NCBI GenBank assembly: GCA_009841225.1
Contig: VXMF01000001.1
Span: forward strand, 40,937-104,936
Direction of reading: 5' to 3'
Length of the DNA: 64,000 nucleotides
From: Terriglobia bacterium
GTDB taxonomy: Bacteria; Acidobacteriota; Terriglobia; Bryobacterales; UBA6623
Shown: positions 7,286 to 54,944 of the stretch, one piece after another
Numbering within the stretch: the stretch's first letter is position 1
How the letters are laid out: the number at the start of each line of letters is the position of its first letter
The notes under the pieces: generated by a model
What the model was told of the DNA's origin: nothing
Databases searched by the model: none
Seen by the model: the letters and a program-made list of their open reading frames with translations, nothing else
Translations under genes and position numbers: made by a program

Positions 7286-7326
7286 CGGGGGCGTTCCCGA
7301 CTCCCGTCTCCCCGCCGGGCAGACAA

Positions 7327-39353: not shown

Positions 39354-40364
39354 ATGCGAATCGTCACACTCGCGCTGGCCAGCGCAGCCGCGCTGGCGCA
39401 GCTCCAAGCCGCAACCACCGAAAGCCCGCTCGACCGCAGGGATCTCAGCGGGGGAACCAGAGTCACCGCCAGCGCAGCGCCGTTCTTGGTGTTCCTTGAA
39501 ACCAACTACGGGCGCTACTACGGCGGATGCCTGGGAACCTTGATCTCAAATAGCTGGATCGTGACCGCCGCGCACTGCATTGACGCGACTGGCGGCCGCC
39601 AAATTGCCGTGCGACACATCAGCGGGTACGAAGAACGAAGGTTTGCCCGCCCGCCGGGGCGGGCCGACGAGAGGCGGCACATCACGATCCACGTGCACCC
39701 GGACTACGAACCAGCAACCCCCCAGAGCTGGGAAGACGTTGGAACCGACATCGCGCTCCTGAGGCTACCAAGGCCGTTCCAAGGCTCGAGAATCGCGCCA
39801 GCGCGCCTGCCGACAGCGGCCGAGGCGCTCACGATCCAGCCCGGCCTGACCGTCCGAACAATCGGCAAGACCGGACGCCGCGGCGCAGCCAGCGCCGACT
39901 GGCCGATCTTGGCCAAGCCGCACGCCTCAGCGCTAACCATACGCACCGATCCGGGATCGCGGTTCCTCGAACTCGGCGACAGCGGCGGGCCGACACTAAT
40001 GCAAGTCGGTAACGAATGGGTGCTCATCGCCCTAAACAGAGGCGCAGATACCGAAGGGCAGACACGTTACGACGCGGTCAACATCAGCTACCACCACGAA
40101 TGGATGGCCGGCCTCGGCGTAGACGGGATCGAGCCGCCAGACTCCCAACCGCCGACACCGCCAACACCGCCGAGCACGCCCGAGTCGCGACCGCGAGGCA
40201 AGATCACGCTCACGTTCGAAACCGAGAACCTGACCGGGCTAACCTGCACCTTCGAGACCAGTGACGGCGCCAGCACCCGCGTGAGCGGAAGCAACAGCCG
40301 AAGCAGCATCAGCTGGAACCTCACCGGCCCGTTTCGCAGGAGCATAACCGTCGAATGCGAATGA
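39354..40364 (+). CDS. secreted trypsin-like serine protease (S1 family) with Pro/Thr linker and small C-terminal domain
   Basis: Catalytic triad motifs TAAHC, DIALLRL and GDSGGP. Signal MRIVTLALASAAALAQLQA. Linker PPDSQPPTPPTPPSTPESRP. Confidence 0.88.
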   Translation: MRIVTLALASAAALAQLQAATTESPLDRRDLSGGTRVTASAAPFLVFLETNYGRYYGGCLGTLISNSWIVTAAHCIDATGGRQIAVRHISGYEERRFARPPGRADERRHITIHVHPDYEPATPQSWEDVGTDIALLRLPRPFQGSRIAPARLPTAAEALTIQPGLTVRTIGKTGRRGAASADWPILAKPHASALTIRTDPGSRFLELGDSGGPTLMQVGNEWVLIALNRGADTEGQTRYDAVNISYHHEWMAGLGVDGIEPPDSQPPTPPTPPSTPESRPRGKITLTFETENLTGLTCTFETSDGASTRVSGSNSRSSISWNLTGPFRRSITVECE

Positions 40365-40688
40365 GCCGGGGAGATCGGGTAGCAAGAATCACGTCGAAGT
40401 AACGCAATCCAGTTTGAGCTAGAACAGCGAATCTGTGGCGCAGCACGGCAACGATCACGGAGCGCTCGCCCAACCAGAGCGCCAAGCGATGGCTGGGCAC
40501 CGGTACGCCCGCCTGTTCGATCAGCGGCGGACCGGCCAACTCTCCGCCGTCAACGCCAACAGCGACCATCAGCAGCTAGCCAAGCAGCGCGGCACACAGC
40601 CGCTACAAGAAGGCGCGGGCTGGTTCGTCGCATTGATGTTCCTCAAGATTCACACGCTGCCCTCCGCGGGAATACGGCAGCCCGCCTG

Positions 40689-41915
40689 TCACGCTCCGAA
40701 GAATCCAGACAGCGCCACGAAGCACATGTAGAACGAGAACAGCACCGTAACGCCCAGGCCCGCATTGAGGGCGAGCGAGGGGCGGTCAGGCCCGCAAACC
40801 TCTTCCTTGTTCAGCAGTAGCAAAACAAACAGCGCCAGCAGCGGCATCGCCACCGGGCTGACGGCCTGCGAGGCGATCATGATCTGCACGGGCCTGCCGC
40901 CCAGCACGGGCACGACCAGTCCGAACAGCGCAGCTCCGACCACCATCGCCCGGAAGGCGGCCCCGCCCATCTTGCGCGGCAAGCCGAGGAAGTCCGCGGC
41001 CATCCACGGCCCGAGCAGGTAGTTCGGAAACAGCGACGAGAGGCCGGCCGCGATGATGCCGATCACGAAGCCGCCCGTTGCCAGACCGCCGGCGAGCGGT
41101 TCCAAGGTCTTGACCATATCGATCGCCGCGTCGATCTCCATGCCCTGACGGTGGAGAGTCCCCGCGGCGCAGGCCATGATGGCGGCGTTGATGAAGAACA
41201 GCAGCGTCATCGAGAACCCGGAGTCCCGGTTCACAACTGGCAGGTCGCTCGCGCTCCAGCCCTCTTCTTTCACCAGCACGCTGCGGGTGAACAGCACGAC
41301 CGACGCCATGGTCGTGCCCACCATGCCCGCGATCAGCAAGCGCGGATTGCCGGAAGTGGGAATGCTGGGCACCAAGCCGGACACTAGCTCGCCGGCTCCG
41401 GGCAGGACCAGCGCGGAGGTGAAGAAGAACGCCAAGCCCATCACTCCAACCAGCGCAGCCAAGACTTTGAGGAAGAACCCGTGGCGACCCACCCAGTACA
41501 GGCCGAGCAGGAAGGCAGTGAATACGATGGCCGCAAGCAAGGGATCGGCCGCGATGCCCAGGGCCGACGAGCACCATTCGCTGAAGACGTCGGCCACGAT
41601 GGCCATCACGCCGATGATGGACGTGATCTGCGTGGCCACGAGCGAGAGGATCATCAGCACCGTGACAGGCGTGCCGAAGTGGCGCCGGAATAGATACAGC
41701 AGGGTCTGGCCAGACAGGATCGTCAGCCGGCTGATGCCGACGATCATCAAGTGCGTAAACACCGAGGCCAGCGCCAGCGTCCATGTCAGCGACATGCCAT
41801 AGCTGGCCCCGGCCGAACTCATCGTCGTGACACTGCCCGTGCCCACGACGTAGCCGATGATGAAGATGCCCGGCGCCAAGCTGGCGGCCGCGCGCTTGAC
41901 GCGCTTCCAGTCCAT
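40689..41915 (-). CDS. Nramp (SLC11)-fold transporter with non-canonical metal-site motifs
   Basis: Colinear with MntH (IGY..., AGASYGMSLTW, IAAGLSSL). TM1 DPGN is replaced by GTGS (res 25-28). The TM6 ...MPH region reads GTTMASV (res 200-206). Confidence 0.75.
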   Translation of the reverse strand: MDWKRVKRAAASLAPGIFIIGYVVGTGSVTTMSSAGASYGMSLTWTLALASVFTHLMIVGISRLTILSGQTLLYLFRRHFGTPVTVLMILSLVATQITSIIGVMAIVADVFSEWCSSALGIAADPLLAAIVFTAFLLGLYWVGRHGFFLKVLAALVGVMGLAFFFTSALVLPGAGELVSGLVPSIPTSGNPRLLIAGMVGTTMASVVLFTRSVLVKEEGWSASDLPVVNRDSGFSMTLLFFINAAIMACAAGTLHRQGMEIDAAIDMVKTLEPLAGGLATGGFVIGIIAAGLSSLFPNYLLGPWMAADFLGLPRKMGGAAFRAMVVGAALFGLVVPVLGGRPVQIMIASQAVSPVAMPLLALFVLLLLNKEEVCGPDRPSLALNAGLGVTVLFSFYMCFVALSGFFGA

Positions 41916-42006
41916 TCGGGCGCAAGCATATCACCACGCCCGCGGCGACTTCCGAGCGGCTGCGATACGTCGCCATTGGCGCTTGCGTCATACTCAACTG
42001 AAGGCT

Positions 42007-43578
42007 ATGCAGAATTTGGCTTTGCGATTCCTCACGCTACTGCTGGCGTTGGCAGCCACTTTGGCCGCGCAGCGCGTGGAGGTCGAAGAACTCACCCTCG
42101 ACAACGGCATGACGTTCCTGCTGTTGCCGCGAGAGGGCGACCCGAACGTCGCTGCGGGCTGGATCTCGAAGTTCGGATCCGTCAACGAGAGACCGGGAGT
42201 GACCGGCGTCGCTCACCTCTTCGAGCACATGATGTTCAAGGGCAGCCATGCCATAGGCACCAAAGACCTAAAGCGCGACCTCGAAATCATGGACGAACTC
42301 GACGGGCTGTATGCCGAGATGGAATCCGAACGGGCCAAGCTGCTGGAAAAGCAGCGGCGCGGGCTCATCGCGGACGCCGACAATCCGGCTGTCCGCAGCC
42401 CTGAGCACAGCGAGCTCTTGGAACGCTTCAGCCGGCTCATCGCCGAACAGCAGGAATTAATCGTCAAGGACGAGTTTTCGCAGATCTACACCCTCAACGG
42501 TGGATCGGGAATGAACGCCGGCACCAGCAACGACTACACGATCTACTTCATCAACATGCCATCCAACAAGCTGGAGCTGTGGTTCTGGATGGAGTCCGAT
42601 CGGCTGGCCCAACCTGTCTTCCGTCAGTTCTATGCCGAGCGAGACGTGGTCAAGGAAGAACGTCGGCTGCGGGTTGACTCCACGCCCACCGGCAAGCTCA
42701 ACGAGCAGTTCGAGTCTATGTTCTGGCAGGCCTCGCCGTACAGCTGGCCGGTGATCGGCTGGCCTTCTGACCTGAATTCCATCACCCGCGACGAGGCCAT
42801 GGAGTACTTCGACACGTACTACGCGCCGAACAACTTGGTAGCGTCTCTGGTCGGCGACTTCGACATCGAACAGGTCAAGGGCCTGGCCCAGAAGTACTTC
42901 GGGCGTCTGGAGCGCAACGAGCGCGAGCCGGGTGCCGTGCGCACTCGCGAAGTCGAGCAACAGGCCGAGCAGCGGCTCAGCGGGCATGCCGAGACCCGGC
43001 CGCAGGCCACCGTCCGTTTCCACACGGCCCCCGACGCCCATGTAGACGAGCCGGCATTGATCGTGCTGTCGTCTCTGCTGAACGGCCGCACGGGCCGGCT
43101 CTACAAGTCCCTTGTCCTAGAGAAACAGGTGGCCGTCCAAGCCGGAGCGGGAGTCGACGGGCGCAAGTACGACGGCTCGTTCCAGGTTTCCGGCGTGGCC
43201 GCTCCCGGCTCGACGCCCGAAGACGTGGAAAAGGCGCTGCTGGAAGAACTAGACCGCATCGCCGCCGAACCCGTGGCCGAGCGCGAGCTGCAGAAGGTCA
43301 AGAACCAGCAGCTTGCCGGAGACTTCCGCAAGTTGCAGTCGAAGTTCGGATTGATGTTGCAATTGCTGACGTACGAAGCGCTGGGCGAGTGGGAGAACAT
43401 CAATGTCTTCTCGGAGCGCATACAAGCTGTGACGCCGGGGGACATCCAGCGTGTCGCCAAGAAGTACTTCACCGAAACGAACCGCACGGTGGCCCTGTAC
43501 TACACGAAGGAGGGCGCAGGCCCGCCCGGGGGCCGAGGTGGCGGGCGCGGGCGGGGACCGCAAGGAGGTCGGCCATGA
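42007..43578 (+). CDS. M16 family zinc metallopeptidase (catalytic subunit), exported
   Basis: HxxEH in AHLFEHMMFKGS. Signal MQNLALRFLTLLLALAATLAAQ. The 5' extension in the track (41857..) overlaps the divergent transporter gene. Confidence 0.9.
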   Translation: MQNLALRFLTLLLALAATLAAQRVEVEELTLDNGMTFLLLPREGDPNVAAGWISKFGSVNERPGVTGVAHLFEHMMFKGSHAIGTKDLKRDLEIMDELDGLYAEMESERAKLLEKQRRGLIADADNPAVRSPEHSELLERFSRLIAEQQELIVKDEFSQIYTLNGGSGMNAGTSNDYTIYFINMPSNKLELWFWMESDRLAQPVFRQFYAERDVVKEERRLRVDSTPTGKLNEQFESMFWQASPYSWPVIGWPSDLNSITRDEAMEYFDTYYAPNNLVASLVGDFDIEQVKGLAQKYFGRLERNEREPGAVRTREVEQQAEQRLSGHAETRPQATVRFHTAPDAHVDEPALIVLSSLLNGRTGRLYKSLVLEKQVAVQAGAGVDGRKYDGSFQVSGVAAPGSTPEDVEKALLEELDRIAAEPVAERELQKVKNQQLAGDFRKLQSKFGLMLQLLTYEALGEWENINVFSERIQAVTPGDIQRVAKKYFTETNRTVALYYTKEGAGPPGGRGGGRGRGPQGGRP

Positions 43579-45071
43579 AGCGCCGGGACTGGATCAAGAC
43601 AGCCGCAGGCGGCGCTCTGGCGACGCTGGCACAAGCCCAGGACGGCCTGCCGGAGCACCCGCGGGATCTGGTGTTCCCCAAGCTCTCTTACGACCCTCCC
43701 GACCCGTCCGAGTACCGCCACGAGCTGGACTCAGGGGCGGTGGCGTACTTGGTAGAAGACCATCAACTGCCGCTGGTATCCATCGGGCTGACGCTGCGCG
43801 CGGGCGCATACCAGGTGCCGGCCGAGAGCGCGGGCTTGGCGGGATTCACCGGCAGCCAGATGCGCTCAGGCGGCACCACGAACCTCAGCGCTCAGGATTT
43901 CGACGAGGAAGCGGCCTTCCTCGCGACGCAGATCGGCGCGAGTATCGGGGCGACATCCGGTGGTGGTTCGGTCAATTGCTTGACGCAGAACCTCGACCGC
44001 TCGCTGGAACTGTTCTTCGACGTGCTCAAGCGCCCCGGCTTCGAGGCGGAACGGCTTGAGATTGCCCGAGCCCAGACCCTGCAGGGACTGGCCCGCCGCA
44101 ATGACCGGCTGGACCGGATCCAGTCGCGCGAGTTTCGCCGGCTCACGTACGGGGACCACTTCACCACCATCCAGTCAACCCAGGCGTCAATCGAGTCGAT
44201 CTCGCGGGAAGCCATGCAAGAGTTCCACGCCCGGAGCTTCGATCCGCGGCGGATGTTCTTCTCGGTGTCCGGCGATTTCGACACCCAAGACATGATCCGG
44301 CGGCTCAACGAGGCCCTGGCGGACGGCTGGCCGGACGGCCCGGCAGAACCGGCCGAGATCCCGGCCCCCTCTCACGAACCGCAGCCTGGCGTCTACATGG
44401 TCAACAAGACCAGCCGGGACGTGAACCAGTCCCACGTGGTCCTAGGACACCTAGGGATACACCGCTTCGACCCCGATGCCTTCAAGGTGCGCATCATGAA
44501 TTCCGTCTTGGGCGGGGGCGGCTTCACCTCGCGCATCATGGTGCGCGTCCGCTCGGACGAGGGCTTGGCGTACAGCGCCTACTCGCGCTTCCAGCCGGGC
44601 ACGTACTACCCGGGCACCTTCTCGGCCGGCTTCCAGTCGCGCAACGCCACGTGCGCGCAGGCGGCGGCGATCGTGGTCGAGGAAATCGAGCGCATGCAGA
44701 ACGACAAGATCACGGCCAGGGAACTGGACACGGCCAAGAATTACCAGATCGAGATCTTTCCGCGCTTCTTCGCCACCGCCGGCCAGGTCGCCGGGACTTT
44801 CGCGAACGACGAGTTCACCGGGCAGAAGAAGGACTATTGGAAGACGTATCGCGAGCGCGTCGGCGACGTCAGTGTCGACGACGTGCTGGAGGCCGCCCAA
44901 CAACACCTGCACCCGGGCAAGTTGGTGGTGCTGGCCGTCGGCGACCGCGAGGCCATGCTGCAGGGCAACCCGGACAAGCCGGAATTCAGCTTCGAGAAGC
45001 TTGCCGGCGATGTCGGCATCCGGGGGATCCCGCTGCCCGACCCGCTAACGATGCAATACCCCGAGGCGTAG
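43575..45071 (+). CDS. M16 family peptidase-like protein lacking HxxEH (non-catalytic partner subunit)
   Basis: M16 fold-like sequence with no HxxEH. Tat-like MKRRDWIKTAAGGALATLAQA. ATGA overlap with the upstream M16 gene, with AAGGAGG upstream. Confidence 0.85.
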   Translation: MKRRDWIKTAAGGALATLAQAQDGLPEHPRDLVFPKLSYDPPDPSEYRHELDSGAVAYLVEDHQLPLVSIGLTLRAGAYQVPAESAGLAGFTGSQMRSGGTTNLSAQDFDEEAAFLATQIGASIGATSGGGSVNCLTQNLDRSLELFFDVLKRPGFEAERLEIARAQTLQGLARRNDRLDRIQSREFRRLTYGDHFTTIQSTQASIESISREAMQEFHARSFDPRRMFFSVSGDFDTQDMIRRLNEALADGWPDGPAEPAEIPAPSHEPQPGVYMVNKTSRDVNQSHVVLGHLGIHRFDPDAFKVRIMNSVLGGGGFTSRIMVRVRSDEGLAYSAYSRFQPGTYYPGTFSAGFQSRNATCAQAAAIVVEEIERMQNDKITARELDTAKNYQIEIFPRFFATAGQVAGTFANDEFTGQKKDYWKTYRERVGDVSVDDVLEAAQQHLHPGKLVVLAVGDREAMLQGNPDKPEFSFEKLAGDVGIRGIPLPDPLTMQYPEA

Positions 45072-45088
45072 GCGGAGCGGGCGGGCGC

Positions 45089-45964
45089 TCAGCGGCCCAG
45101 CTGGTCCCGGATCCTGCGGTAGATGGCCTGGGTGGCCGTGGAGTGGTTCAGCGTGTAGAAGTGCAGCCCGGCGACGCCCTCGGCTAGCAGGTGCCTGCAC
45201 TGGGCGGTGGCGTGGTCGATGCCAACCGCCCGGACCTGGGCGGGGCTCGCCTGCACCGCCTCGAGTCGGGCCAGCAACTCGGCCGGTATCCGCGCGCCGC
45301 ACATCGTGGCGAAGCGCTGGGTCTGGCTGAGGCTCCGGACTGGCATGATGCCGGCCAGCACAGGCACGGAGATTCCCGCCGCGACAGCCCGGTCGCGAAA
45401 CCTGAGGAAGTCATCGTCATCGAAGAAAAGCTGGGTGATCAGGAAGTCGGCCCCGGCATCGACCTTGCGCTTCAGATTCGCGAGATCGTCTTCCGGGCTG
45501 GCAGCCTCCGGATGGGTCTCCGGGTAGCATGCGGCACCGAGGCAGAAGCTGTAGCGCTGGCGGATGAAGCCGACCAGTTCGTTGGCGTAGCGAAATCCGC
45601 CCGGGACAGGCTCGAAGCGGTCGGAGCCTCTGGGCGGGTCGCCGCGCAGCGGCAGGACGTTCTCGATCCCGTCGGCCTCGAGCGAATCAAGCACGTCCGC
45701 AATGTGCTCGCGCGTCGATCCAACGCAGGTGATGTGGGCCATCGCTTCGATGCCCGCATCACGCTTGATGCGCTTGACGAGCTCAACCGTCTTGTGGCGT
45801 GTGCTGCCACCGGCGCCGTATGTCACCGAGACATAGCTGGGGCTTAGCGGGCGGAGGGCGTCAATCGTCTCGAACAGGGGACCGAACCCGTCTTCTTCCT
45901 TCGGCGGAAAGAACTCGAAAGAGACCGTCGGCGATCCGGGCGCGAGCATGTGGCGGATCTTCAT
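45089..45964 (-). CDS. metF: methylenetetrahydrofolate reductase
   Basis: VSFEFFPPK, SVTYGAGGSTR, HITCVG, NVLPLRGDPP: characteristic MetF motifs. Confidence 0.93.
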   Translation of the reverse strand: MKIRHMLAPGSPTVSFEFFPPKEEDGFGPLFETIDALRPLSPSYVSVTYGAGGSTRHKTVELVKRIKRDAGIEAMAHITCVGSTREHIADVLDSLEADGIENVLPLRGDPPRGSDRFEPVPGGFRYANELVGFIRQRYSFCLGAACYPETHPEAASPEDDLANLKRKVDAGADFLITQLFFDDDDFLRFRDRAVAAGISVPVLAGIMPVRSLSQTQRFATMCGARIPAELLARLEAVQASPAQVRAVGIDHATAQCRHLLAEGVAGLHFYTLNHSTATQAIYRRIRDQLGR

Positions 45965-46029
45965 CGCCGAGACACCTCAGGCTATCACGAGGATTCCCAA
46001 TGGCGGCGCGAGCGGGCGCGGCGGACCGG

Positions 46030-46050
46030 CACCCAAGCCAGTCTTGGGTG
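46030..46050. other. perfect 8-bp-stem hairpin in the 242-nt metF leader / PIN-gene trailer
   Basis: cacccaag-ccagt-cttgggtg read directly. Function unknown. Confidence 0.3.
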
Positions 46051-46206
46051 ATCTGCTCGTTATCGAGCGCCAAGATGCAAGCTAGAGCAACCTTGGCCGT
46101 TGCTTCCCGCTTGAAGGCGTTGGATCTGAGTGCCCCAAAGCCATTCGAAGCAGAAGCCATGCCACCGGCAGCCTGAACTCACGGACCCGTGGTTCCTAAG
46201 TGCCGG

Positions 46207-46716
46207 CTACTCCGCCTTCTTGTACCGCCTGATTCGCGCCGCGAGTTCACGTCGGGGCAACCGGACGTTCGGATCGTCGGTAAAGTCGCGAAGGACCGCT
46301 AGCAAGACTTTGGTTGGTGCAAGGCCCGCGTTGTGAATCTGATCGATCACCCAGAGAGTCCCGTGGACCTCCAAGCGGTAACTTTCGGCGAGCGCCCTCA
46401 AGCCACTGTCACCCGTGAGCAGCATGCGGTCCTCGCAACTGTCAGCAAGGGCGAATGCGAAGGCGTCATGAATTGAGAGTTGCGGGTAGTCACCAACGAT
46501 CGCTCGGGCACGAAGGACGCTCTCCGCTGGCACCTCTACTACTTTGAGCCCTCCCTGCAAGAGCAAGTCCTTCTGGGCGGGCGTGAACCGGACCAATTCC
46601 TCCTCGAAGAGCGCGTCCGGGATTAGGACCTCATACGGTAAGTCTAGGAAGGCCTCGAGCAACGACGCCTTCCTAAGGTCAATAAGGCAACTGCTGTCAC
46701 TGACTATCAGGCGCAT
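46207..46716 (-). CDS. PIN domain protein (putative toxin/RNase) with C-terminal extension
   Basis: MRLIVSDSSCLIDL (first Asp), ...EE..., HDAFAFALA, LLTGDSGL: acidic PIN quartet. 20-nt overlap with the upstream XRE-ImmA gene. Confidence 0.8.
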   Translation of the reverse strand: MRLIVSDSSCLIDLRKASLLEAFLDLPYEVLIPDALFEEELVRFTPAQKDLLLQGGLKVVEVPAESVLRARAIVGDYPQLSIHDAFAFALADSCEDRMLLTGDSGLRALAESYRLEVHGTLWVIDQIHNAGLAPTKVLLAVLRDFTDDPNVRLPRRELAARIRRYKKAE

Positions 46717-47839
46717 TGGCGTGCTGCGGACCCTTTAGGCCTGCCTCTACTTCCGGAAGGGGTATTCTCAGCAGTTCCGTACCCTTCGCGAGCGAGATCA
46801 AGCCCTCTGCGAGTGCGCGGTAGCACAGGCGCTCGAACCGGGCTGGGCGTTCGCGCTGTCCCCGCTGGTTGATAGGTTCGATTTCTTCGGGTTCCTTGGT
46901 TCGCCAGCCGCGAGCGACCGTTTGGTAGGTGTAGGTGAGCTTTGATTTGCTGATCACGTTCAGCTGCCACAAACGAACGAGTAGCGCTGCCCCACTGACT
47001 CTATAAACGTGCTTGAGTTCGATCAGTTCCTTGTAGCCTAGGGCGTTTCGACGCTTTCCGACTTCGCGCAGCAAGTGTTCCCGGGGCATCAGGAACGCGC
47101 CAGCGAATATGTTGGCGGCTTCTTCTTCATACCGATCCGATAGGGTATCGGTGTTTATCAGTCGATGAGCCAGCTCGTGGGCCAGCGTGAACCGGCGGCG
47201 TTCAAGAGTGAATCGATCGTTCGCTACGACGACTGGCAACTCCGTCTGTCCGTTGGAACGCCTGACGAAGCAGGTGAGTCCAGAGACGCGGTCGGGCAAC
47301 ATGACGGTAAGAACCTTCAGTCCCTTTTCCTCGAGCAATTCGGTCATGTTGGGGATTGGGTCGATTCCCAAGCGCCATTCCTCACGTGCATCGGCAGCAA
47401 GCCGTTCCGCATCGTGCACTTGGCCTAGCTCCCTCGGTGGTTTGATCGGGCATTGCCAATGCGCACTGTCGAGCTCCAGCACGGCCTCAATTTGCAAATA
47501 GCGTTCGATCCACTCAAGCACCTCCGTTTCGACCTTTGCCCGATCCCGAGCAGTCGTGTTGGTCTTGGTGCGGAACTCGACTCCTTGGATCTCGATGTCC
47601 TGGGTATCCATCAGGTAACTCACAGACACGCCCATGGCTCTTGACAACGCAATCAGGACACCCGAACTGGGGATACTCTCCCCTCGCTCATACTTCCCGA
47701 TTGCTTGAGCCGTCACTCTTCCGTCGATGGCGTCCGAGAGGCCCCGCAGCGACAGCCCGGACTTGCGGCGCGCCAGTCTAACTCGGTCAGCAATCATGTC
47801 TCCGCCCAGAGCAGGAGTTTCCAATTGACCTGCTTCCAT
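46697..47839 (-). CDS. fused XRE-family HTH + ImmA/IrrE (M78, COG2856) zinc metallopeptidase
   Basis: HTH_3 segment (RVRLARRKSGLSLRGLSDAI...IGKYERGES.PS...L..LSRAMGVSVSYL). HEXXH with family context (RRRFTLAHELAHRLI...EEEANIFAGAFLMP). Alternative start at ATG 47797 (MIADRVRLAR). Confidence 0.88.
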   Translation of the reverse strand: MEAGQLETPALGGDMIADRVRLARRKSGLSLRGLSDAIDGRVTAQAIGKYERGESIPSSGVLIALSRAMGVSVSYLMDTQDIEIQGVEFRTKTNTTARDRAKVETEVLEWIERYLQIEAVLELDSAHWQCPIKPPRELGQVHDAERLAADAREEWRLGIDPIPNMTELLEEKGLKVLTVMLPDRVSGLTCFVRRSNGQTELPVVVANDRFTLERRRFTLAHELAHRLINTDTLSDRYEEEAANIFAGAFLMPREHLLREVGKRRNALGYKELIELKHVYRVSGAALLVRLWQLNVISKSKLTYTYQTVARGWRTKEPEEIEPINQRGQRERPARFERLCYRALAEGLISLAKGTELLRIPLPEVEAGLKGPQHANAPDSQ

Positions 47840-47843
47840 ATGT

Positions 47844-47873
47844 ATTGTAAACTAAACGATTCGCGCTTGGCAA
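47844..47873 (-). promoter_or_regulatory. sigma70-like promoter TTGCCA-18-TACAAT directly upstream of the XRE-ImmA gene
   Basis: Minus strand reads TTGCCAagcgcgaatcgtttagttTACAATacatATG. The -10 ends 4 nt before ATG 47839, so the mRNA is leaderless or has a very short leader. This is the least GC-rich stretch I noticed while reading. Confidence 0.45.
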
Positions 47874-48052
47874 GCCCACTGCCACCCCAGCGCTTCTTCC
47901 ACGGAGCACAGAAAAAGGTGGAGTCGGGCGAATACGACTTCGGCGTTGATAGCAAATATGGGACGCAATCTCTTCGCGTTCGGGGCAATGGAGGCCTTCC
48001 AGACAAGGCTACAATTGCGATGGCGAGCGCAACAACCGGCTCGGAGAGCAAC

Positions 48053-48238
48053 ATGTCCAAGGAGTTGACCGCGATTATCGAGAGCGAAGCGGACGGCTAC
48101 GTAGCACTTTGCCCCGAGTTGGACGTGGCTAGCCAAGGTGACACCGTGATCGAAGCGCGCTCCAACCTACAAGAGGCTCTTGAGTTGTTTTTTGAAACCG
48201 CTGCAAAGACCGAGATCGAGCAACGCTTTGGTTCATAG
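48053..48238 (+). CDS. HicB-family antitoxin-like small protein (no HicA partner seen)
   Basis: LTAIIESEADGYVALCPELDVASQGDTVIEARSNLQEALELFFE matches the HicB N-terminal (RNase H-like) fold signature. Alternative start at ATG 48020. The rest of track ORF 47705.. has no support. Confidence 0.65.
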   Translation: MSKELTAIIESEADGYVALCPELDVASQGDTVIEARSNLQEALELFFETAAKTEIEQRFGS

Positions 48239-48375
48239 GGGTACGTGACTGCCGCCGAGGTGGCGATTGGCTGAGATCCGAGTGCTTTCGGCGTCGAGTG
48301 TTTGCAGGATCCTATCGGGCGCAGCATGGCACAGTCCTTGCTTGTCCCGATCCGAGCTGTTGTTACGCTGAAGCA

Positions 48376-49284
48376 ATGCACGCTCCGGCCACACTGCTCA
48401 GCGCAGAGGCGCTGGAGCGGCTCGAGCGGCTGACGATCCGCTGGACGCAGTCCTTTCAGGGGCGGATCGGCGGTGACATCGTGTCCCGCTACCCGGGCGT
48501 CGGACACGAGTTCCTGGACCACCGCAATTTCCAGCGGGGCGACGACCTGCGCGCCGTCAACTGGCGCGCCTACATGCGCCTCGAGCGCATGTTCCTGAAG
48601 CTCTTCCGGTCCGAGCCGCGGATTCCCGTGCGAATCCTGATCGACACCAGCGAGTCTATGGCGGTCGGCGGAGAGGATGCCTCGGATTCCAAGTTCGCCT
48701 ATGCCTGCCGCTTGGCCGCCTCGCTGTGCTACGTCGGCTTGGTCCGCCTCGAGACCATCGTGCTGCAACCCTTCGCGGACACACTCTCGGATTCGTTTCG
48801 AGCGCACGGGGGAAGACTCCGCTACGGCCAGGCGGCGGAATACATCTCGAACCTCGAAACCGGCGGCGGCACGGCCTTCCAGCGCCCGGTGCGGGACTAC
48901 CTGATGAAGTTTCCCGTCCCAGGGATCACGTTCGTGCTGAGCGACTTCTTGGACAGCGCAGGAGGGAACCTGCCGCTGGACCACTTGGTCAACGAAGGCC
49001 ACGAGGTTCACTTGCTCCAGATCGCCTCGCCCAGCGATCGCGAGCCTCCCTGGCGCGGCGATCTCGAACTGTTCGACGCCGAGACGGACTCGGTGCTGCA
49101 GGTCAGCCTTGACGACCGCTCGGCTCGCGAGTATCGCGACTCGTACGACGAGTTTTGCCGCTCTCTCGAGCGACATGCCAAGCGATCCGGCGCGCAATAC
49201 CTGCACCTCTCAACGGCCGAGCCGATCGAGAGCGTGCTGTTTCAGGAATTGCCCGCCACTCGCCACGCGACGGGACCGCAATAG
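48376..49284 (+). CDS. DUF58 domain-containing protein (MoxR-system associated, VWA-like)
   Basis: GVGHEFLDHRNFQRGDDLRAVNWRAYMRLERMFLKLF and PVRILIDTSESM are characteristic DUF58 segments. Confidence 0.85.
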   Translation: MHAPATLLSAEALERLERLTIRWTQSFQGRIGGDIVSRYPGVGHEFLDHRNFQRGDDLRAVNWRAYMRLERMFLKLFRSEPRIPVRILIDTSESMAVGGEDASDSKFAYACRLAASLCYVGLVRLETIVLQPFADTLSDSFRAHGGRLRYGQAAEYISNLETGGGTAFQRPVRDYLMKFPVPGITFVLSDFLDSAGGNLPLDHLVNEGHEVHLLQIASPSDREPPWRGDLELFDAETDSVLQVSLDDRSAREYRDSYDEFCRSLERHAKRSGAQYLHLSTAEPIESVLFQELPATRHATGPQ

Positions 49285-49287
49285 GCC

Positions 49288-51207
49288 ATGGGACTGCTCA
49301 ATCTCGCCCTGGCGCAACTGGTCGGGATCTTCGCGCCAATCGCCGGCCTTCTCGTCGCCCTGTACTTCTACGACCGCTCGCGCCGCAGGGTGCTTGTGTC
49401 GACGCTGCGCTTCTGGCCCAAGCGGCCCGCTCCCGCGACGCGGCAGCGCCACAAGCGCATCCAGCATCCGCTTTCCCTGATCTTGCAGCTGATCGCGCTT
49501 GGGTTGTTGCTGCTCGCTATCGCGGATCCCCGGCCCGGCACTTCCGATGCTACGGCACAACGTCGCGTGATCGTCCTGGACACTTCGGCCTCGATGGCGC
49601 TGGCCGACGGCAACGGCGTCAACCTGATGGACCAAGCCAAGACCCTGGCCCTGGCCTATATCAGCTCCCTGCCCGCTGGCGATCAGGCAATGCTGATCGA
49701 AGCAGACGGCTCTCCCATGGTCCGGGTGCCGTTCACGCGAGACCGCCAGCTGCTGCGCGACAGCGTCTCCACAGCGGAGCCCAGCTTGACTCCGCTCGAC
49801 ATCGGCGCTGCATTCGACCTAGCCGACGGCACGCTCCGGCTTGCGCTGAATTCGGGCGGCGAGCCGCTGGCAGACAATGCAGGAGCGGGAGAGACGGTCT
49901 ACATAGGCCCGGGACGATTCGACGGCGAGCCGGTTCGCGCTGGAGTGCTGCCGAGCGTCCGCTACCTGCAGACAGAGGCTCCTAGCGACTCGTTGGGAAT
50001 TCTCTCGCTGGAGGCCTCAGCCGACCTCGCGGAGCGAGGCAAGTGGAATGTCGCGCTCGAGGCGCGGAATTACGGCTCTGAAACCACCACGGCCCGCATC
50101 GATTTCTTCTTCAGTGACAGGCTTCTGGGCCATCGCAACCTTTCCATCGCGGAGGGCGGAGACGAGAGCCTCCAGTTCACTCTCAGAAGCCAGCATCCAG
50201 GCAGGCTGCGGGCGCAACTCGCCGCAGACGATGCCTACCCGCAGAACAACGTAGCGACAGTCGCGATTCCCGCCCCGGACCGCACTCGCGTCCAGATCCA
50301 CGGAGCGTCCGAACGGGAGTTCGGGCCGCTGCTCGCGGCCGGCGCCCGCATCGAGGCCGACTATGTGGAATCCCCCGAGGACCTGACCCCCGATGCCATC
50401 CATGTCTGGGCCCGCGGTGGAGGCACCGGATCGTCAAGCCGCGCAATCTACCTCGCTCCCCCGGGCACCCAGTCACCGATCGCAGAGGCGGCGTCTGCAC
50501 GCAGAAGCGCGGTTTCGGAGTGGTCGGCCTCGCACCAGCTTGCCAAGGGAATCCGTGACCCCGACCTGATTCCAGACCGTGTTCGCGTATTCACGCCTAG
50601 CCCCGGGGACGACGTTATCGCCAGCACAGCTGACGGACCCGTCATCGTCGCGCGGTCCGACGACGACAAGAGACTCGTAGCCTTAGGCTTCGATCTGACG
50701 GACCCGTCGGTCCGCGACCGCTTGTCCGCGCCGATGCTCTTCGCGAACGCGGTCTCGTGGCTGGACTCTGCGGCGTTCCGCGCGGAGGCGGTCGCCGCCC
50801 GAGGTCCGGGCGCGGTGACCATCGAGGCCCCGAATTCCGCCCCGCACCAGATCTCCGTCCGCACGGCTAGCGGCGCCAAGGTCCCGTGGGTGCTCTCCGA
50901 CGGGAAGGTTCGCTTCTACGGCGACCAGCGGGACACCTACCGCGCGACGACCGCCGATCACGACCTGACCCTCATCTTGCAGCAGCCGCAGATCCCGAGC
51001 GCTAGCTGGGAACCGTCCGAATCGGTCTTGCGCGGTGTGCCATCAAGACTGGCCGGGATGGGCGAATCGTGGATACTCTGGCCGTGGCTCGCGGCTCTCG
51101 GGGCATTGATCCTGCTGTACGACTGGATCCGCTTCGGACGGGGGCGGCGCCTGACCGCTGAGACGGTTCAGGCCGCATCACAACATGCACCGGAGGGCAG
51201 GCTGTGA
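49288..51207 (+). CDS. BatA-like protein (N-terminal double-TM aerotolerance domain + VWA-like region)
   Basis: N-terminal MGLLNLALAQLVGIFAPIAGLLVALYFYD...RFW...LSLILQLIALGLLLLAIADP (double-TM BatA_N). RRVIVLDTSASM. C-terminal TM helix. Confidence 0.78.
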   Translation: MGLLNLALAQLVGIFAPIAGLLVALYFYDRSRRRVLVSTLRFWPKRPAPATRQRHKRIQHPLSLILQLIALGLLLLAIADPRPGTSDATAQRRVIVLDTSASMALADGNGVNLMDQAKTLALAYISSLPAGDQAMLIEADGSPMVRVPFTRDRQLLRDSVSTAEPSLTPLDIGAAFDLADGTLRLALNSGGEPLADNAGAGETVYIGPGRFDGEPVRAGVLPSVRYLQTEAPSDSLGILSLEASADLAERGKWNVALEARNYGSETTTARIDFFFSDRLLGHRNLSIAEGGDESLQFTLRSQHPGRLRAQLAADDAYPQNNVATVAIPAPDRTRVQIHGASEREFGPLLAAGARIEADYVESPEDLTPDAIHVWARGGGTGSSSRAIYLAPPGTQSPIAEAASARRSAVSEWSASHQLAKGIRDPDLIPDRVRVFTPSPGDDVIASTADGPVIVARSDDDKRLVALGFDLTDPSVRDRLSAPMLFANAVSWLDSAAFRAEAVAARGPGAVTIEAPNSAPHQISVRTASGAKVPWVLSDGKVRFYGDQRDTYRATTADHDLTLILQQPQIPSASWEPSESVLRGVPSRLAGMGESWILWPWLAALGALILLYDWIRFGRGRRLTAETVQAASQHAPEGRL

Positions 51208-53657
51208 CGCTGGAAACCGCCTGGCCTCTGCTGCTGTTGATTCCGCTGCTGGCGTGGGCCGCCCGCGAGTGGACGCACACCCCGAGGCGGCTAGGCCTGT
51301 TGCTGAAGACCCTGGCGCTGGCAGCGGTGTGCTTGGCACTCTGCCAGCCTCAATGGCGCATCTCCGAGACCTACGCCGCGGTCGCGATCCTGAGCGACGC
51401 TTCGGACAGCATCCCGGAAGAGCAGCGCGGACAGCAGGAGGCGTTCCTGCAGCGAGCCCGAGCGGCGGGCCGAGGACACACGCTGCGCGAGCTGGAATTC
51501 GGCAAGCTGCCCGTGCGGCAGCTCCGTGACAGCGAAGCCAGCCGCTCGACAAACCTGGAGGCAGCGCTGCGCAACGCGCTGGGCGCACTGCCGGCCGACC
51601 GGGTGCCGCGGCTGGTGTTAGTCAGCGACGGCCACGCCAGCGAGGGAGCGGTCGAGCGTGCGGTTTACCAAGCCTGGAGTCGCAACGTGCCGGTTGACAC
51701 CCTTGCCCTGGCGGGGCGGGCCGAACCGAGGCTCCGCCTAGCGGGCATGCGCATGCCCTCGCAAGCGTACGTCGGCGAGAGCTTCCCGATCGAGTTCGAG
51801 ATCGAGAGCCCCGAGTCCGTGCGCGCCAGCCTCGAACTGCTCGCGGACGGGCAACTGATCGGAAGCGAGCAAGTGGCGCTGCAAGCCGGCACGAGCGCCG
51901 TCGTGGCACGGGCCAAGCTCGAAAGCCCCGGGGCAACCTTGGTGGAGGGCAAGCTCACGACTGCTGCCGAGGAGCAGGTGCGCTTCGCCGGCGCGGTATC
52001 CATCCACGAGCCGCGCGCTCTGCTGATCTCCTCCGACTCCGACCAGCAGAACGCTTCCCTGGCAGGCGTCTTGGTGGGATCGGGATTCCAGCTCGAGCGC
52101 GCGCCGGCGGCAGCGGTGCGCGATGCAGAGAGCCTCGACTACGACTTGGTGATCTGCTCGAACGAAGACTTCGAAGCCTGGCCCGAGACAGTCAAGGAGC
52201 GACTTGCCAAATTTGTGCGCGCCGGCGGCGGCTTCCTCCTCATCGCGGGCGAGAAGAATCTCTATCGCGAGAGCACCCACGAGGAACCGGACGAACTGCA
52301 ATCGATGCTGCCGGCGATCCTGGCACCGCCACGCACGCCGGAAGGAACGGCCGTGGTGTTGGTCGTGGACAAGTCCTCGTCGATGGAGGGCAAGAAGATG
52401 CAGCTCGCACGGCAGTCGGCCCTAGGCGTGGTCGAGAACCTGCGAGCCATCGACAGCGTGGGAGTGCTGGCATTCGACAATTCGTTCGAATGGGCCGCCC
52501 CCCTGCAGCGGAACGAGATGCCAGCCGACACCAAGCGGATGATCAGCGGAATCGTGGCGGACGGCGGCACCCAGATCGCGCCGGCCCTGGGCGAGGCGTA
52601 CAGGATCATCCGGCCACAGCAGGCCGTGTACAAGCACATCCTGCTGCTGACGGACGGAATCTCGGAAGAAGGCGACAGCATCGCACTTGCGCGCGAAGCC
52701 GCTGCCAACGAGGTAACGATCTCGACGATCGGCTTGGGCCAAGACGTCAATCGCTCGTACCTGGAGCGCGTAGCCCGCAGCGCCGAGGGGCAATCCTATT
52801 TCCTGATCGATATCTCGGCACTGGAGCAGATCGTGCTCAAAGACGTGATGGAGCACACCGGCACATCCGTCACGGAGCGGGAATTCGTGCCGTTCGCCGA
52901 GCGTGACTTCGAGATTCTCGAAGGCTTGGACCTGGCCGAACCGGGCCCGCTGCTGGGCTGGGTCAAGTTCGAGGTCAAGCCAGCGGCGGACACGATCCTG
53001 CACGCCGCTGACGATGACCCCTTGTTCGCGCGCTGGCAGTTCGGCCTCGGACGTTCGGCCGTATTCACGTCCGACGCCAAAGATCGCTGGGCGACCAACT
53101 GGGTAGCTTGGAAGGGATTCGACACTTTTTGGTCGAACTCTCTGCGGGATCTGTTGCCGAGGGCGGCCCGCACCGCCGTACAGACGGAGTACGACGCCAG
53201 CACCGATGAGATCGTGGTGCGCTTCAGCCCGTCGTCGGACGACAGGCCGGACGATCTGCCCGATCTCTACGCACTGGGCCCGGATGGCTACAGATCTGTC
53301 GCGACACCGAGACCGACCGGAGGGGGATTCGAGGCTCGCTTCCCGTCCGAAGGACTCCACGGATTGTTCCGCATCCGGCCCGCCGAGAGGTCCCGCGCGT
53401 TTCCAGAAGCCGCGTACTACCGCGAGAATTCCGAATTGAGCCGGTACGGCTCAGACTCTGACTTGCTCCAGACCATTGCTGCCGCGACGGGCGGGCGCAC
53501 GAATCCCGCCCCCGAAGAACTCTTCGCCACGGGAGGACGGGCGATCGAGCGCTGGATGGATCTGTGGCCAGCCCTGCTGGTATTGGCGATCCTGCTGAAC
53601 TTCGTCGAGCTCCTCGCCCGCAAGGGATGGCTCCCCGTGCTGGGGCGCTGGGCCTGA
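51204..53657 (+). CDS. membrane-anchored VWA domain protein
   Basis: MIDAS-type VWA (VVLVVDKSSSMEG...GGTQIAPAL...ILLLTDGISEEGD...ISTIGLG). N- and C-terminal TM helices. GTGA overlap with the upstream gene. Confidence 0.82.
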   Translation: MTLETAWPLLLLIPLLAWAAREWTHTPRRLGLLLKTLALAAVCLALCQPQWRISETYAAVAILSDASDSIPEEQRGQQEAFLQRARAAGRGHTLRELEFGKLPVRQLRDSEASRSTNLEAALRNALGALPADRVPRLVLVSDGHASEGAVERAVYQAWSRNVPVDTLALAGRAEPRLRLAGMRMPSQAYVGESFPIEFEIESPESVRASLELLADGQLIGSEQVALQAGTSAVVARAKLESPGATLVEGKLTTAAEEQVRFAGAVSIHEPRALLISSDSDQQNASLAGVLVGSGFQLERAPAAAVRDAESLDYDLVICSNEDFEAWPETVKERLAKFVRAGGGFLLIAGEKNLYRESTHEEPDELQSMLPAILAPPRTPEGTAVVLVVDKSSSMEGKKMQLARQSALGVVENLRAIDSVGVLAFDNSFEWAAPLQRNEMPADTKRMISGIVADGGTQIAPALGEAYRIIRPQQAVYKHILLLTDGISEEGDSIALAREAAANEVTISTIGLGQDVNRSYLERVARSAEGQSYFLIDISALEQIVLKDVMEHTGTSVTEREFVPFAERDFEILEGLDLAEPGPLLGWVKFEVKPAADTILHAADDDPLFARWQFGLGRSAVFTSDAKDRWATNWVAWKGFDTFWSNSLRDLLPRAARTAVQTEYDASTDEIVVRFSPSSDDRPDDLPDLYALGPDGYRSVATPRPTGGGFEARFPSEGLHGLFRIRPAERSRAFPEAAYYRENSELSRYGSDSDLLQTIAAATGGRTNPAPEELFATGGRAIERWMDLWPALLVLAILLNFVELLARKGWLPVLGRWA

Positions 53658-53691
53658 GGGCCCGCGAAGCCGATGCTATCCTTGGACTCGT

Positions 53692-53931
53692 ATGGCGATC
53701 CGCATGTACTCGACCCAGTGGTGCTCGGACTGCTGGCGGGCCAAGAATTTCCTCCGCAAGCAAGGCATCGAGTTCACTGAGATCGACATCGAGGACGACG
53801 ATCGCGCCGCAGACCTCGTTATGCACCACAACGACGGCAAGCGTCGGGTGCCCACTTTCGACATCGACGGCGAATTCTACGGCAATCCGAACATCCCGGA
53901 ACTGGCACGCATCCTCGGTGTCGCGATCTGA
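53692..53931 (+). CDS. glutaredoxin/NrdH/mycoredoxin-like small redoxin
   Basis: 79 aa with active site WCSDCWRAK (CxxC) and cis-Pro segment RRVPTF. Confidence 0.82.
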   Translation: MAIRMYSTQWCSDCWRAKNFLRKQGIEFTEIDIEDDDRAADLVMHHNDGKRRVPTFDIDGEFYGNPNIPELARILGVAI

Positions 53932-53954
53932 GGGATTCGCGTTGCCAGCCTTGC

Positions 53955-54944
53955 TTGATGCAGCCCGCCGCGACAGACACTCGCGCCTCCGGCGCGGATC
54001 CTGAGAAAGCGACTCCGCAGTCTCGGAGCGACTTCCTCGACTTCGTCCATTCGCACTGCTTGCGCCGCACCGAAAAGACGGCGGAGCGATTGGCAGCGGC
54101 GCGCTCCGATCCAACCGCCTCCGCCGTACACGACCTGCGGGTGGCGGCACGGCGCTTGCTCTACACCCTGGACTGCTTTTCCACCTTGCTGGACCCGGAT
54201 CGAGCGGCCGACTTCCGCAAGCGGGTCAAATCGATCCTCTCGGCTGCCCGGCGGGTCCGCGAGCTAGACGTCGCGCTCGAGCTCGTCTCTGAACTGGATT
54301 CGGGCATGGGAAACTCGCTTGCGGACGATCTGCGGCGAATGCGTGAGACGGCAACACGGATCATGGGCGAACAGCTGGAGCGCAAACGGGTTCAGAACCT
54401 CACACAGCGATGGCTCAGCAGTGCGAGCGGCTCCGCGCCCGAATCCGTCGAGGACAGATCGGCGGCGACTACGGCGGGCCGAAGGCCGTTTACCCACTTG
54501 TCTTGGATGCCCGATCAATCCTGCGAGGCGAACGCCAGCGCGATCCTGCCCACGCTAGCAGTGCATTTCTTCCAACAAGGACGCGCCGCTTGCACCGAGG
54601 GCACTGCGCCAGAGGAACTGCACGCATTTCGACTCGCGAGCAAGCGACTGCGCTATTGCCTGGAACTCTTCTCCGAGCAGTATGGCCCATCGCTGGCCAC
54701 GCGGCTTGGGGCCTTGCGAGACATCCAAGGGCGACTTGGGGCGCTAAGCGACTACGACTCCACCATCCGGCTGCTCCATTCGGCTGAAGCACCGGACGAT
54801 GCAGCCTCGCAGCGGCTGCTGACCGTCTTTTCTGTCCGCCAAAGTGACGCGACCGAGTCCTTCCTCAAGTCTTGGAAGCGGCATTTCGACACACCGAAGG
54901 CCGAAGACGATTGGAGAAGCTATCTGACCCTGCGACAGGAGTGA
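53955..54944 (+). CDS. CHAD domain-containing protein
   Basis: Repeated CHAD helices with the conserved His/Arg pattern (VHDLRVAARRLLY; LHAFRLASKRLRYCLELF; LRDIQGRLGALSDYD). Confidence 0.8.
   Translation: MMQPAATDTRASGADPEKATPQSRSDFLDFVHSHCLRRTEKTAERLAAARSDPTASAVHDLRVAARRLLYTLDCFSTLLDPDRAADFRKRVKSILSAARRVRELDVALELVSELDSGMGNSLADDLRRMRETATRIMGEQLERKRVQNLTQRWLSSASGSAPESVEDRSAATTAGRRPFTHLSWMPDQSCEANASAILPTLAVHFFQQGRAACTEGTAPEELHAFRLASKRLRYCLELFSEQYGPSLATRLGALRDIQGRLGALSDYDSTIRLLHSAEAPDDAASQRLLTVFSVRQSDATESFLKSWKRHFDTPKAEDDWRSYLTLRQE

Follow-up and report, generated by a model that had tools for sequence, protein, structure and literature searches.

An XRE-HTH/zinc-peptidase gene overlapping a PIN gene in a Terriglobia genome: a putative autoregulated, protease-gated toxin-antitoxin cassette

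Described systems and how the Terriglobia locus compares

In a survey of prokaryotic toxin-antitoxin (TA) systems, COG2856 was listed as a predicted protease toxin and an HTH-DUF955 architecture was predicted, HTH standing for helix-turn-helix (Makarova 2009, PMC2701414); PIN-domain proteins of COG2405 were later reported to be co-transcribed with HTH + DUF955 genes in a predicted ‘three-component’ TA system (Matelska 2017, PMC5499597). Here we describe such a locus in a Terriglobia bacterium, within a stretch of 64,000 nt (contig VXMF01000001.1, positions 40,937 to 104,936; hereafter the window). It consists of gene A, which encodes an XRE-type HTH domain fused to a zinc peptidase of the M78/ImmA-IrrE type, and gene B, which encodes a PIN-domain protein. 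The architecture is exactly the one of these earlier reports, i.e., a fused Xre-HTH/Zn-peptidase with an HExxH motif directly upstream of a COG2405-type PIN gene, but those reports were predictions only and made no mention of an operator, of a C-terminal HTH-like domain or of a frequent coupling to the cyclic oligonucleotide-based antiphage signaling system (CBASS).

Several other described systems share parts of this layout. In the anti-phage RosmerTA systems, which include RipAB of S. pneumoniae, the antitoxin likewise combines an N-terminal HTH with an ImmA-like Zn-peptidase, the toxin partners are variable and the two genes form a co-oriented operon, comparable to the present locus with its 20 nt overlap between A and the PIN gene. 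The antitoxins of RosmerTA are Zn-peptidase proteins, and no deletion mutant of rmrA was obtained, which may be owing to toxicity (Millman 2022, bioRxiv 10.1101/2022.05.11.491447). In contrast to the PIN protein found here, the validated Rosmer toxins depolarize membranes or target DnaN, and the family of HTH-peptidase plus PIN has no known defence phenotype. ImmA-domain antitoxins associated with PIN-like domains were found also with NetFlax (Ernits 2023, PMC10440598).

The CapH/CapP module (Lau 2022; Calloji 2026 preprint) is similar in combining an HTH repressor with an M78 peptidase: CapH represses CBASS and is cleaved by CapP upon DNA damage (Lau 2022, bioRxiv 10.1101/2022.04.27.489752), and 32 of 79 relatives of our cassette lie head-to-head with CBASS genes, the placement described for capH-capP. 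Cleavage of the repressor in this module is stimulated by ssDNA. Unlike this module, the window copy has no adjoining operon, protein A does not follow the CapP domain order of peptidase, central HTH and C-terminal GAF and lacks the GAF domain, and the PIN protein, the constant partner here, is not part of CapH/CapP as described. Lau 2022 listed 15 CapH-CapP fusions and a DISARM locus in which a vapC-like gene adjoins such a fusion.

In the pairs of UPF0175 (COG2886) with DUF3368/COG2405 proteins, of which loci L091-L094 are canonical examples, the PIN protein appears related to B, and our gene A ends in an HTH with an unspecific resemblance to UPF0175 and, as in these pairs, overlaps or abuts the PIN gene; however, the small UPF0175 gene (~75-100 aa) is replaced here by a 366-aa HTH-peptidase gene. 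ImmR/ImmA of ICEBs1 and DdrO/IrrE of Deinococcus share the principle of an XRE repressor inactivated by an M78 peptidase, but these are two separate proteins that control excision or a repair regulon, with no toxin gene. VapBC systems share a PIN protein with acidic active-site residues conserved by sequence, whereas their antitoxins are of ~70-100 aa and of the ribbon-helix-helix, AbrB, Phd or HTH type, in place of a 366-aa multidomain peptidase partner.

Against this background, we interpret the acquired ~1.7-kb cassette as an autoregulated, protease-gated TA-like switch, a reading to which we give a probability of roughly 0.6. The architecture was already predicted (Makarova 2009, Matelska 2017) and conforms to the RosmerTA concept; a CapH-CapP fusion with a vapC-like gene next to it has also been drawn, once (Lau 2022). 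Apparently absent from the cited literature are the 36-bp operator, a second HTH-like domain tied to the PIN protein and the scale of the CBASS coupling (~40% of the loci, several types). These are increments to a known, experimentally untested subfamily and not a new kind of system. A first-pass annotation of the locus had proposed the PIN protein as RNase effector and the HTH-peptidase as its self-cleaving or signal-responsive repressor or antitoxin; this interpretation is supported as largely right, as its testable parts fit the comparative evidence.

A conserved and mobile two-gene unit

To assess the linkage of the two genes, 79 species-representative loci were compiled. A homologue of A was found directly upstream of B in 77 of them, and these loci belong to Acidobacteriota, Nitrospirota, Beta- and Gammaproteobacteria, Planctomycetota, Chloroflexota, Cyanobacteria and others; the survey of PIN neighbourhoods suggested in the first-pass annotation thus returned a nearly constant partner. 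The two exceptions were L064, which ends with its contig, and L075 (positions 5833-6500), the only PIN gene found without gene A, in a metagenome-assembled genome of Rubrivivax. The latter is a remnant without proper start or stop and with the substitutions E38G, E40G and D84H. The 20 nt shared by the end of A and the start of B, reported before, agree with the coordinates of the open reading frames (ORFs), and overlaps of 17-20 nt occur also on the examined contigs L001-L007, which suggests translational coupling. Close to the end of A, the invariant peptide GLKGP is encoded by the sequence ...CTAAAGGGTCC... (46717-46735), which contains an AAGGG Shine-Dalgarno-like motif ~13 nt 5′ of the start of gene B. 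Hence, conservation of this peptide may in part reflect a translational signal for B.

Both genes were intact in 62 loci, A was intact and B broken in six, both were broken in five, and A was frameshifted with an intact B in three, where assembly errors in metagenome-assembled genomes are possible. One of the six loci with only B broken is L051, in which a ~3-kb insertion (6338-9372) splits the PIN gene. These data bear on the proposal that the zinc peptidase is the toxin and the HTH domain its antitoxin, in line with the COG2856-Xre predictions. Such a role would accord with the listing of COG2856 as a predicted protease toxin (PMC2701414) and with a Brucella Zn-metalloproteinase/HTH-Xre pair that was treated as TA (PMC10538038). 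We consider it very improbable, given that A persists intact beside a broken B in six loci, that the sole PIN gene lacking A (L075) has lost three catalytic residues, and that the peptidase protein is the antitoxin in RosmerTA (Millman 2022 preprint; PMC10440598; RipAB, 10.1101/2025.09.02.673660).

The ORF of gene A had originally been taken from its first ATG, giving 380 aa (46697..47839, minus strand). Very probably, the true start is the ATG at 47797, which is Met15 of the long ORF and lies 42 nt downstream of 47839. This follows from the sizes of the best homologues (364-366 aa in nearly all of the best 120 of 4596, covering 95-96% of the 380-aa query), from gene callers, which gave 366 aa on the source contigs, from the start ATGATTGC, which is conserved across loci in 71 aligned upstream regions, and from the ATG at 47839, which falls into the spacer of an inverted repeat that is conserved and non-coding. 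Consequently, the claim of a single XRE-HTH plus M78 protein holds for its pair of domains but not for its start and length. All residue numbers of A below refer to the 366-aa protein.

The promoter-like site TTGCCA-18-TACAAT (47873..47844) matches the consensus in 10 of 12 positions, and two such sites were found compared with 0.6 expected from shuffled sequences. It was described as abutting the first ATG; the site itself stands, whereas that ATG (47839) lies within the inverted repeat. Around the -10 hexamer, the consensus AGTTTACAaTAcATat is kept in 65 of the 71 upstream regions. The repeat, a putative operator of 36 bp (Table 1), follows a family consensus of GTTTACA-N21/22-TGTAAAC that overlaps the -10 element and is present with at most one mismatch in 65 of 71 relatives vs 1.3% of windows drawn at random from these loci. 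In the 64 kb of the window it is a single site, with 0 expected by chance. Its right-arm variant TGGAAAC, instead of TGTAAAC, is common to the whole sub-clade.

The spacing from arm to arm is fixed, whereas anything from 11 to 28 nt separates the right arm from the start codon, which ties the repeat to the promoter and not to translation. As the left arm lies 5′ of the expected (inferred) transcription start, the repeat should be a DNA element and cannot be an RNA hairpin. The natural reading from the sequence is that it serves as an autorepression site for A. The same conserved repeat also gives rise to a promoter-like site on the opposite strand, with a geometry set by the repeat spacing, which could serve the divergent operon in relatives. 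Four Burkholderiales loci (L061, L063, L067 and L069) retained the left arm and the -10 element but carry ACGACAACTG in place of the right arm, with an unchanged recognition helix; in L063, moreover, the end of gene A recurs in part ~4.6 kb upstream. Co-variation of the HTH recognition helix with the operator was considered but is uninformative, since the helix is nearly invariant even in these four loci.

In addition, the cassette differs in composition from its surroundings. Its GC content is 0.581 (mean of the window 0.637), which ranks 14th from the bottom among 623 windows of 1.7 kb, and the GC content at third codon positions (GC3) of its two genes is 0.66 and 0.72 compared with 0.84 in metF and DUF58. 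The dip relative to the flanking genes, which had been judged by eye, is therefore real in both GC and GC3. In blastn comparisons, only 46150/46167..47854/47856 of the window was shared with loci L082, L013 and L051, at 88-90% identity, while L012 is syntenic with the window (92% over 6.5 kb). As nothing beyond 46150..47856 is shared at the DNA level across contexts, the mobile unit consists of the promoter region, A and B, and comparison of these sequences indicates that the cassette was acquired horizontally. Short two-copy matches at chance level were all that a search for flanking direct or inverted repeats as insertion scars returned, and, as to an empty site, the contigs found with identical metF all carry the cassette.

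Homologues of the PIN protein with 40-45% identity occur on 49 plasmids, 37 of which are conjugative or mobilizable. In the two plasmid loci examined (L096 and L097), an annotated “XRE family transcriptional regulator” of ~354 aa lies directly upstream of the PIN homologue. Searches of 50,697 phage genomes gave 0 homologues, and in IMG/VR a homologue was found on one contig only, beside CBASS. The possibility that the locus is a prophage or integrative and conjugative element (ICE) immunity region of the ImmR/ImmA type had been dismissed before for want of accompanying phage or ICE genes, and we agree that it is hardly credible. A does match models of the M78/ImmA family and XRE repressors including ImmR. 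Nevertheless, repressor and protease are fused here and are not separate genes, no phage or integrase gene was among the called neighbours in the window, no tRNA was found within 40000-54000, and the relatives lie in defence islands, in transposase-rich regions and on plasmids. Matches to Rfam families, including riboswitches, were absent as well from 45800-48450.

Table 1. Positions of genes, domains and regulatory elements of the cassette and of the flanking metF gene in the window
Feature	Position	Strand	Description
Mobile unit	46150..47856		~1.7 kb; blastn
Gene A (corrected start)	46697..47797	minus	366 aa; XRE HTH + M78/ImmA-IrrE zinc peptidase + C-terminal HTH-like domain; putative repressor/antitoxin
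Gene B	46207..46716	minus	169 aa; COG2405/DUF3368-type PIN-domain protein; putative RNase toxin
Overlap, end of A/start of B	46697..46716	minus	20 nt
-35-like hexamer TTGCCA	47868..47873	minus	Consensus scan; a cTTG motif recurs there in relatives
-10 hexamer TACAAT	47844..47849	minus	Inside the left operator arm
Inverted repeat, putative operator	47817..47852	minus	36 bp; left arm GTTTACA (47846-47852), 22-nt spacer, right arm TGGAAAC (47817-47823)
Opposite-strand promoter-like site TTGACC-17-TAAACT	47825..47853	plus	Consensus scan, 9 of 12 matches
XRE-type HTH domain of A	47609..47797	minus	Residues 1-63; Pfam HTH_3, PDB profiles, Foldseek
M78 peptidase region of A	46904..47413	minus	Residues ~129-298; Peptidase_M78, structure match to IrrE
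HELAH codons of A	47165-47179	minus	HExxH motif
E225 codon of A	47123-47125	minus	Third ligand
Conserved linker of A	46844..46903 (conserved stretch to 46912)	minus	Residues 299-318 (conserved stretch 296-318); predicted disordered; candidate cleavage/regulatory segment
C-terminal domain of A	46733..46843	minus	Residues 319-355; three-helix Fis/UPF0175-like HTH; model helices, hhalign
metF (flank)	45089..45964	minus	

Domain make-up of the two proteins

Pfam searches matched gene A with HTH_3 (residues 7-62, E 1.9e-11) and Peptidase_M78 (residues 157-276, E 1.6e-16, 60.6 bits vs a cut-off of 22), which are the two families expected from its first annotation. Profiles of the P22 C2 repressor, ClgR and ImmR from the PDB matched its N-terminus, for which Foldseek gave TM-scores of 0.8-0.9 vs the DNA-binding domains of P22 c2 and SinR. 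The closest structural match of the peptidase was IrrE (3dti), and IrrE and an IrrE orthologue also matched by sequence. The HExxH...E residues H207, E208, H211 and E225 were invariant in an alignment of 30 homologues; hence the assertion of a complete HEXXH core extends to all catalytic and metal ligands. Conservation is high throughout the protein, with a mean column identity of 84% in 30 sequences from different phyla, a family identity of ~70% across phyla and 84-97% identity to the nearest relatives.

The AlphaFold2 model of A (predicted local distance difference test, pLDDT, 77) consists of the HTH (1-63), a weakly predicted hinge, a strand and long helix (70-107), the peptidase up to ~298, a disordered stretch of ~295-318 and three short helices within 319-355. 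In the linker, the pLDDT is <50 at residues 295-302, and secondary structure is absent through 318. Despite the predicted disorder, its sequence RGWRTxEPxExE...RGxxE is among the best-conserved stretches of the protein, with six invariant residues (W298, R299, E302, E307, R312 and E316). This segment may serve for cleavage, as a pseudo-substrate or in binding the PIN protein.

Among defence models, the RmrA models of PADLOC matched A at E 7e-48 to 2e-23, mostly ending at about residue 320 of the 380-aa ORF. Weaker PADLOC matches were obtained with capP (E 1.4e-14), which aligned only over positions 26-155 of its 242, and capH (E 4.7e-4). With 102 bits vs a curated cut-off of 335, A is not a member of the spr1629/RipB antitoxin model of NCBIfam (NF052239). 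Neither the PADLOC RmrA nor the NCBIfam spr1629 models matched the last 63 residues of A alone.

This C-terminal domain contains helices at 319-330, 336-343 and 347-355 (AlphaFold2). In hhalign comparisons with 28-74 genuine UPF0175 proteins it scored 92.8-93.7% (E 2e-7 to 4e-7) over a 32-residue HTH core, the values for the set of 28 proteins being 92.8% and E 4e-7. The UPF0175 set was collected with a consensus-like bait and was checked by precomputed Pfam assignments and by the DUF3368 neighbours of two members. As controls, the N-terminal HTH reached 0.3%, the M78 region 3% and the reversed alignment 0%, and the top score in 200 column shuffles was 18.3 vs 39.1 observed. A second, more divergent set of C-terminal domains gave the same result independently. 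In metagenomes, a B-like PIN gene directly followed the gene for the C-terminal-domain protein in 65 of the 75 more divergent loci with room downstream. UPF0175 was reportedly found solely with COG2405 PINs (PMC5499597) and was itself described as Fis-like (PMC2701414).

For UPF0175, Pfam gave E 0.086 to 0.0016 only, far under its cut-off, and on 20 divergent C-terminal fragments Pfam reported HTH_Tnp_ISL3 in 12, the Fis-type HTH_8 in eight (best E 6e-5) and UPF0175 in eight. A specific UPF0175 ancestry, which the hhalign scores had favoured, was downgraded since the Fis-type and ISL3-transposase HTH models match equally well. Such a descent should be taken as a lead suggested by profile comparison and not as a result; a central HTH of IrrE/CapP that has lost the GAF domain is an equally possible source. 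Two further candidates were discarded. Among solved structures, the only apparent relatives of this domain were designed pentatricopeptide repeats, which arose spuriously from summed repeat matches of 3-4 bits, and short matches resembling free-standing small genes for the domain beside PIN genes turned out to be fragments or remnants of decayed cassettes.

The AlphaFold2 model of B is confident (pLDDT 93). The Foldseek matches listed from the PDB were PIN-fold proteins (protein-only RNase P/HARP, VapC4 and others) at TM-scores of 0.55-0.61, and precomputed PF11848 assignments were present on all 120 of the B homologues listed (1026 homologues in total). The assignment of gene B as a PIN gene is supported by fold and through its homologues; a fresh Pfam scan of B itself stayed under threshold. 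Its full acidic quartet was confirmed in the 79 loci, with D7 in 77 of 78, E40 in 74 of 76, D84 in 73 of 75 and D103 in 74 of 74 sequences, so the active site is not degenerate by sequence; in an alignment of 32 sequences D7, D13, E40 and D103 were invariant and D84 nearly so. In hhalign, B matched two DUF3368 PINs partnered with UPF0175 (E 1e-4 to 2e-4, probability 48-58%). Of the PADLOC models, B matched PDC-S70 (E 1e-9), a candidate described as a PIN protein that occurs mostly in archaea and lacks experimental validation (PMC12988326). A sequence search for solved PIN relatives of B gave no meaningful match.

Defence neighbourhoods and the proposed switch

The neighbours of the cassette in relatives included Mrr, DruA, SIR2, GmrSD, SMODS, RmuC, an integrase and several transposases. 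Using tblastn, CBASS cyclase or TRIP13 genes, or remnants of them, were detected beside the cassette in 33 of the 79 loci, 32 of which have them in divergent orientation to A. These divergent neighbours were CBASS oligonucleotide cyclases of several clades (PADLOC E 1e-113 to 1e-122) and TRIP13/Cap6 of type III CBASS (E 1e-115). CBASS genes adjoin the plasmid copies in L096 and L097 as well. Minimal cyclase partners were seen in L004/L005/L006 and in L096, where they consist of SMODS, a 198-aa protein and DUF2188, or of a nucleotidyltransferase and a SLATT protein; DUF2188 operons were previously tied to CapH/CapP-like genes (Lau 2022, bioRxiv 10.1101/2022.04.27.489752). In L013 and L051, the closest non-syntenic relatives, truncated CBASS cyclase remnants with 48-80 alignable residues stand next to an intact A. 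In the other 46 loci, the fetched flanks showed no CBASS gene, and neither a CBASS gene nor a remnant was found beside the window copy, the divergent neighbours of which are a 61-aa HicB-like ORF and DUF58. The window copy is therefore an orphan cassette without a neighbouring defence operon. Its earlier description as a stand-alone module is correct for this genome but not for the family, with 32 of 79 relatives divergently joined to CBASS.

These neighbourhoods could also mean that A is mainly a fused CapH-CapP-type regulator of an adjoining defence operon such as CBASS, with the PIN protein as an accessory (a co-repressor bridging two A proteins, or an addiction gene) and the window copy as a leftover. 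The divergent cyclase or TRIP13 genes directly upstream of A in 32 relatives, from several CBASS types, would fit such a regulator, as would the like arrangement on the plasmids (L096, L097), the cyclase remnants in L013 and L051, the opposite-strand promoter-like site yielded by the repeat, and the 15 fusions and the DISARM locus with its vapC-like gene (Lau 2022). We nevertheless regard this account as rather unlikely when set against the 46 loci in which no CBASS gene appeared in the fetched flanks, a DNA-level mobile unit of A and B only, a PIN partner (77 of 79 loci) that is far more constant than the divergent neighbour, the conserved PIN active site and the lack of the CapP GAF domain in A. 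It overlaps with the explanation as a TA-like switch and does not exclude it.

Both ideas can be combined in a dual-role A, i.e., a damage-sensing CBASS repressor of the CapH/CapP type with a tethered antitoxin domain for the PIN RNase, the C-terminal HTH having been captured by fusion from the UPF0175 antitoxin of COG2405 PINs. A single cleavage would turn CBASS on and set the nuclease free at once, and the addictive cassette would outlive CBASS, leaving orphans such as the one in the window. We offer this elaboration as a tentative possibility and lean against it.

The orphan state raises, furthermore, the question of a non-functional relic drifting after its transfer. Several relatives have decayed, and the right arm of the window copy carries the one-base variant TGGAAAC. 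On the other hand, this variant is common to the sub-clade, both ORFs are intact with all catalytic residues present, the same protein sequences recur in several independent contigs and samples, and A is 84-97% identical to its nearest relatives, which makes a relic improbable.

For the TA-like switch, which starts from the domain make-up, catalytic motifs, conserved operator, linkage, mobility and defence or plasmid contexts described above, we envisage the following sequence of events. In the resting state, A, probably together with B, would be bound to the 36-bp repeat over the -10 element and keep the operon repressed; in CBASS-linked relatives, it would probably repress the head-to-head CBASS operon, too. 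At the same time, A would hold the PIN protein inactive, most plausibly via its C-terminal domain. By analogy to ImmA, IrrE and CapP, the trigger may be DNA damage or a phage-derived signal, upon which the peptidase would cut A at an inter-domain linker, leading to derepression and to release of the PIN protein. The released PIN protein would then degrade RNA and cause growth arrest.

Several points weigh against this scheme, in which toxicity of the PIN protein, its neutralization by A, cleavage of A in cis or in trans and the kind of trigger are all inferred. With Pfam, B scored 19.7 bits for PIN (23.6 required) and 15.3 bits for DUF3368 (27.3 required), both below threshold. Pfam identified no GAF domain in A, and past the peptidase the model has only three short helices; since GAF is present in CapP and IrrE after the central HTH, their sensing mechanism cannot simply carry over. 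The C-terminal domain is a generic Fis-like HTH with an unspecific link to UPF0175, and is only a candidate for the PIN-binding part of A. The two half-sites of the operator are 29 bp apart from centre to centre, unusual for a simple XRE dimer, and this spacing suggests an oligomer instead. In PIN-antitoxin complexes of the FitAB type, a 36-bp site holds two separated repeats that the complex bridges, which provides a lead only. Finally, toxin-first decay was rejected as evidence for addiction, because six loci with only B broken vs three with only A broken are too few and are confounded by metagenome assembly errors.

In this genome, the locus represents an ordinary small acquired cassette of the TA or defence type between housekeeping genes. 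Beyond it, the family bears on the questions of signal sensing and cleavage target in RmrA-type antitoxins composed of an HTH and a zinc peptidase. It is a practical model because it is well conserved, has a three-domain layout, a 36-bp operator and a known class of toxin enzyme, and has cultured or plasmid representatives, namely Telmatobacter bradus DSM 23630, Silvibacterium bohemicum S15, Agrobacterium tumefaciens pAtCFBP6623a and plasmids of the Roseobacter group. The recurrent head-to-head link with CBASS suggests that a TA module and a transcription regulator of immunity can be the same cassette.

Additionally, we noted two features in the vicinity. On the side opposite to metF, the cassette is followed by an ORF of 61 aa (48053..48238, plus strand) and then by a DUF58-BatA-VWA operon. 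This ORF, which was called as a gene on the source contigs, has a GC content of 0.54 and resembles HicB/UPF0150, with scores of 20.6 bits for UPF0150 and 17.5 bits for HicB_lk_antitox that stay below the respective cut-offs; a HicA partner was not seen. It lies 3′ of the plus-strand promoter-like site and outside the mobile unit. At ~7 kb from the cassette (37291-39137, plus strand), a gene for an AAA_15/AAA_21-type ATPase of 428 aa overlaps a second gene of 187 aa that had no match. The ATPase matched PDC-M07A of PADLOC (E 1e-55) and also HEC-01A, AriA and AbiLi-like models, and the pair may constitute a second defence-type system in the window.

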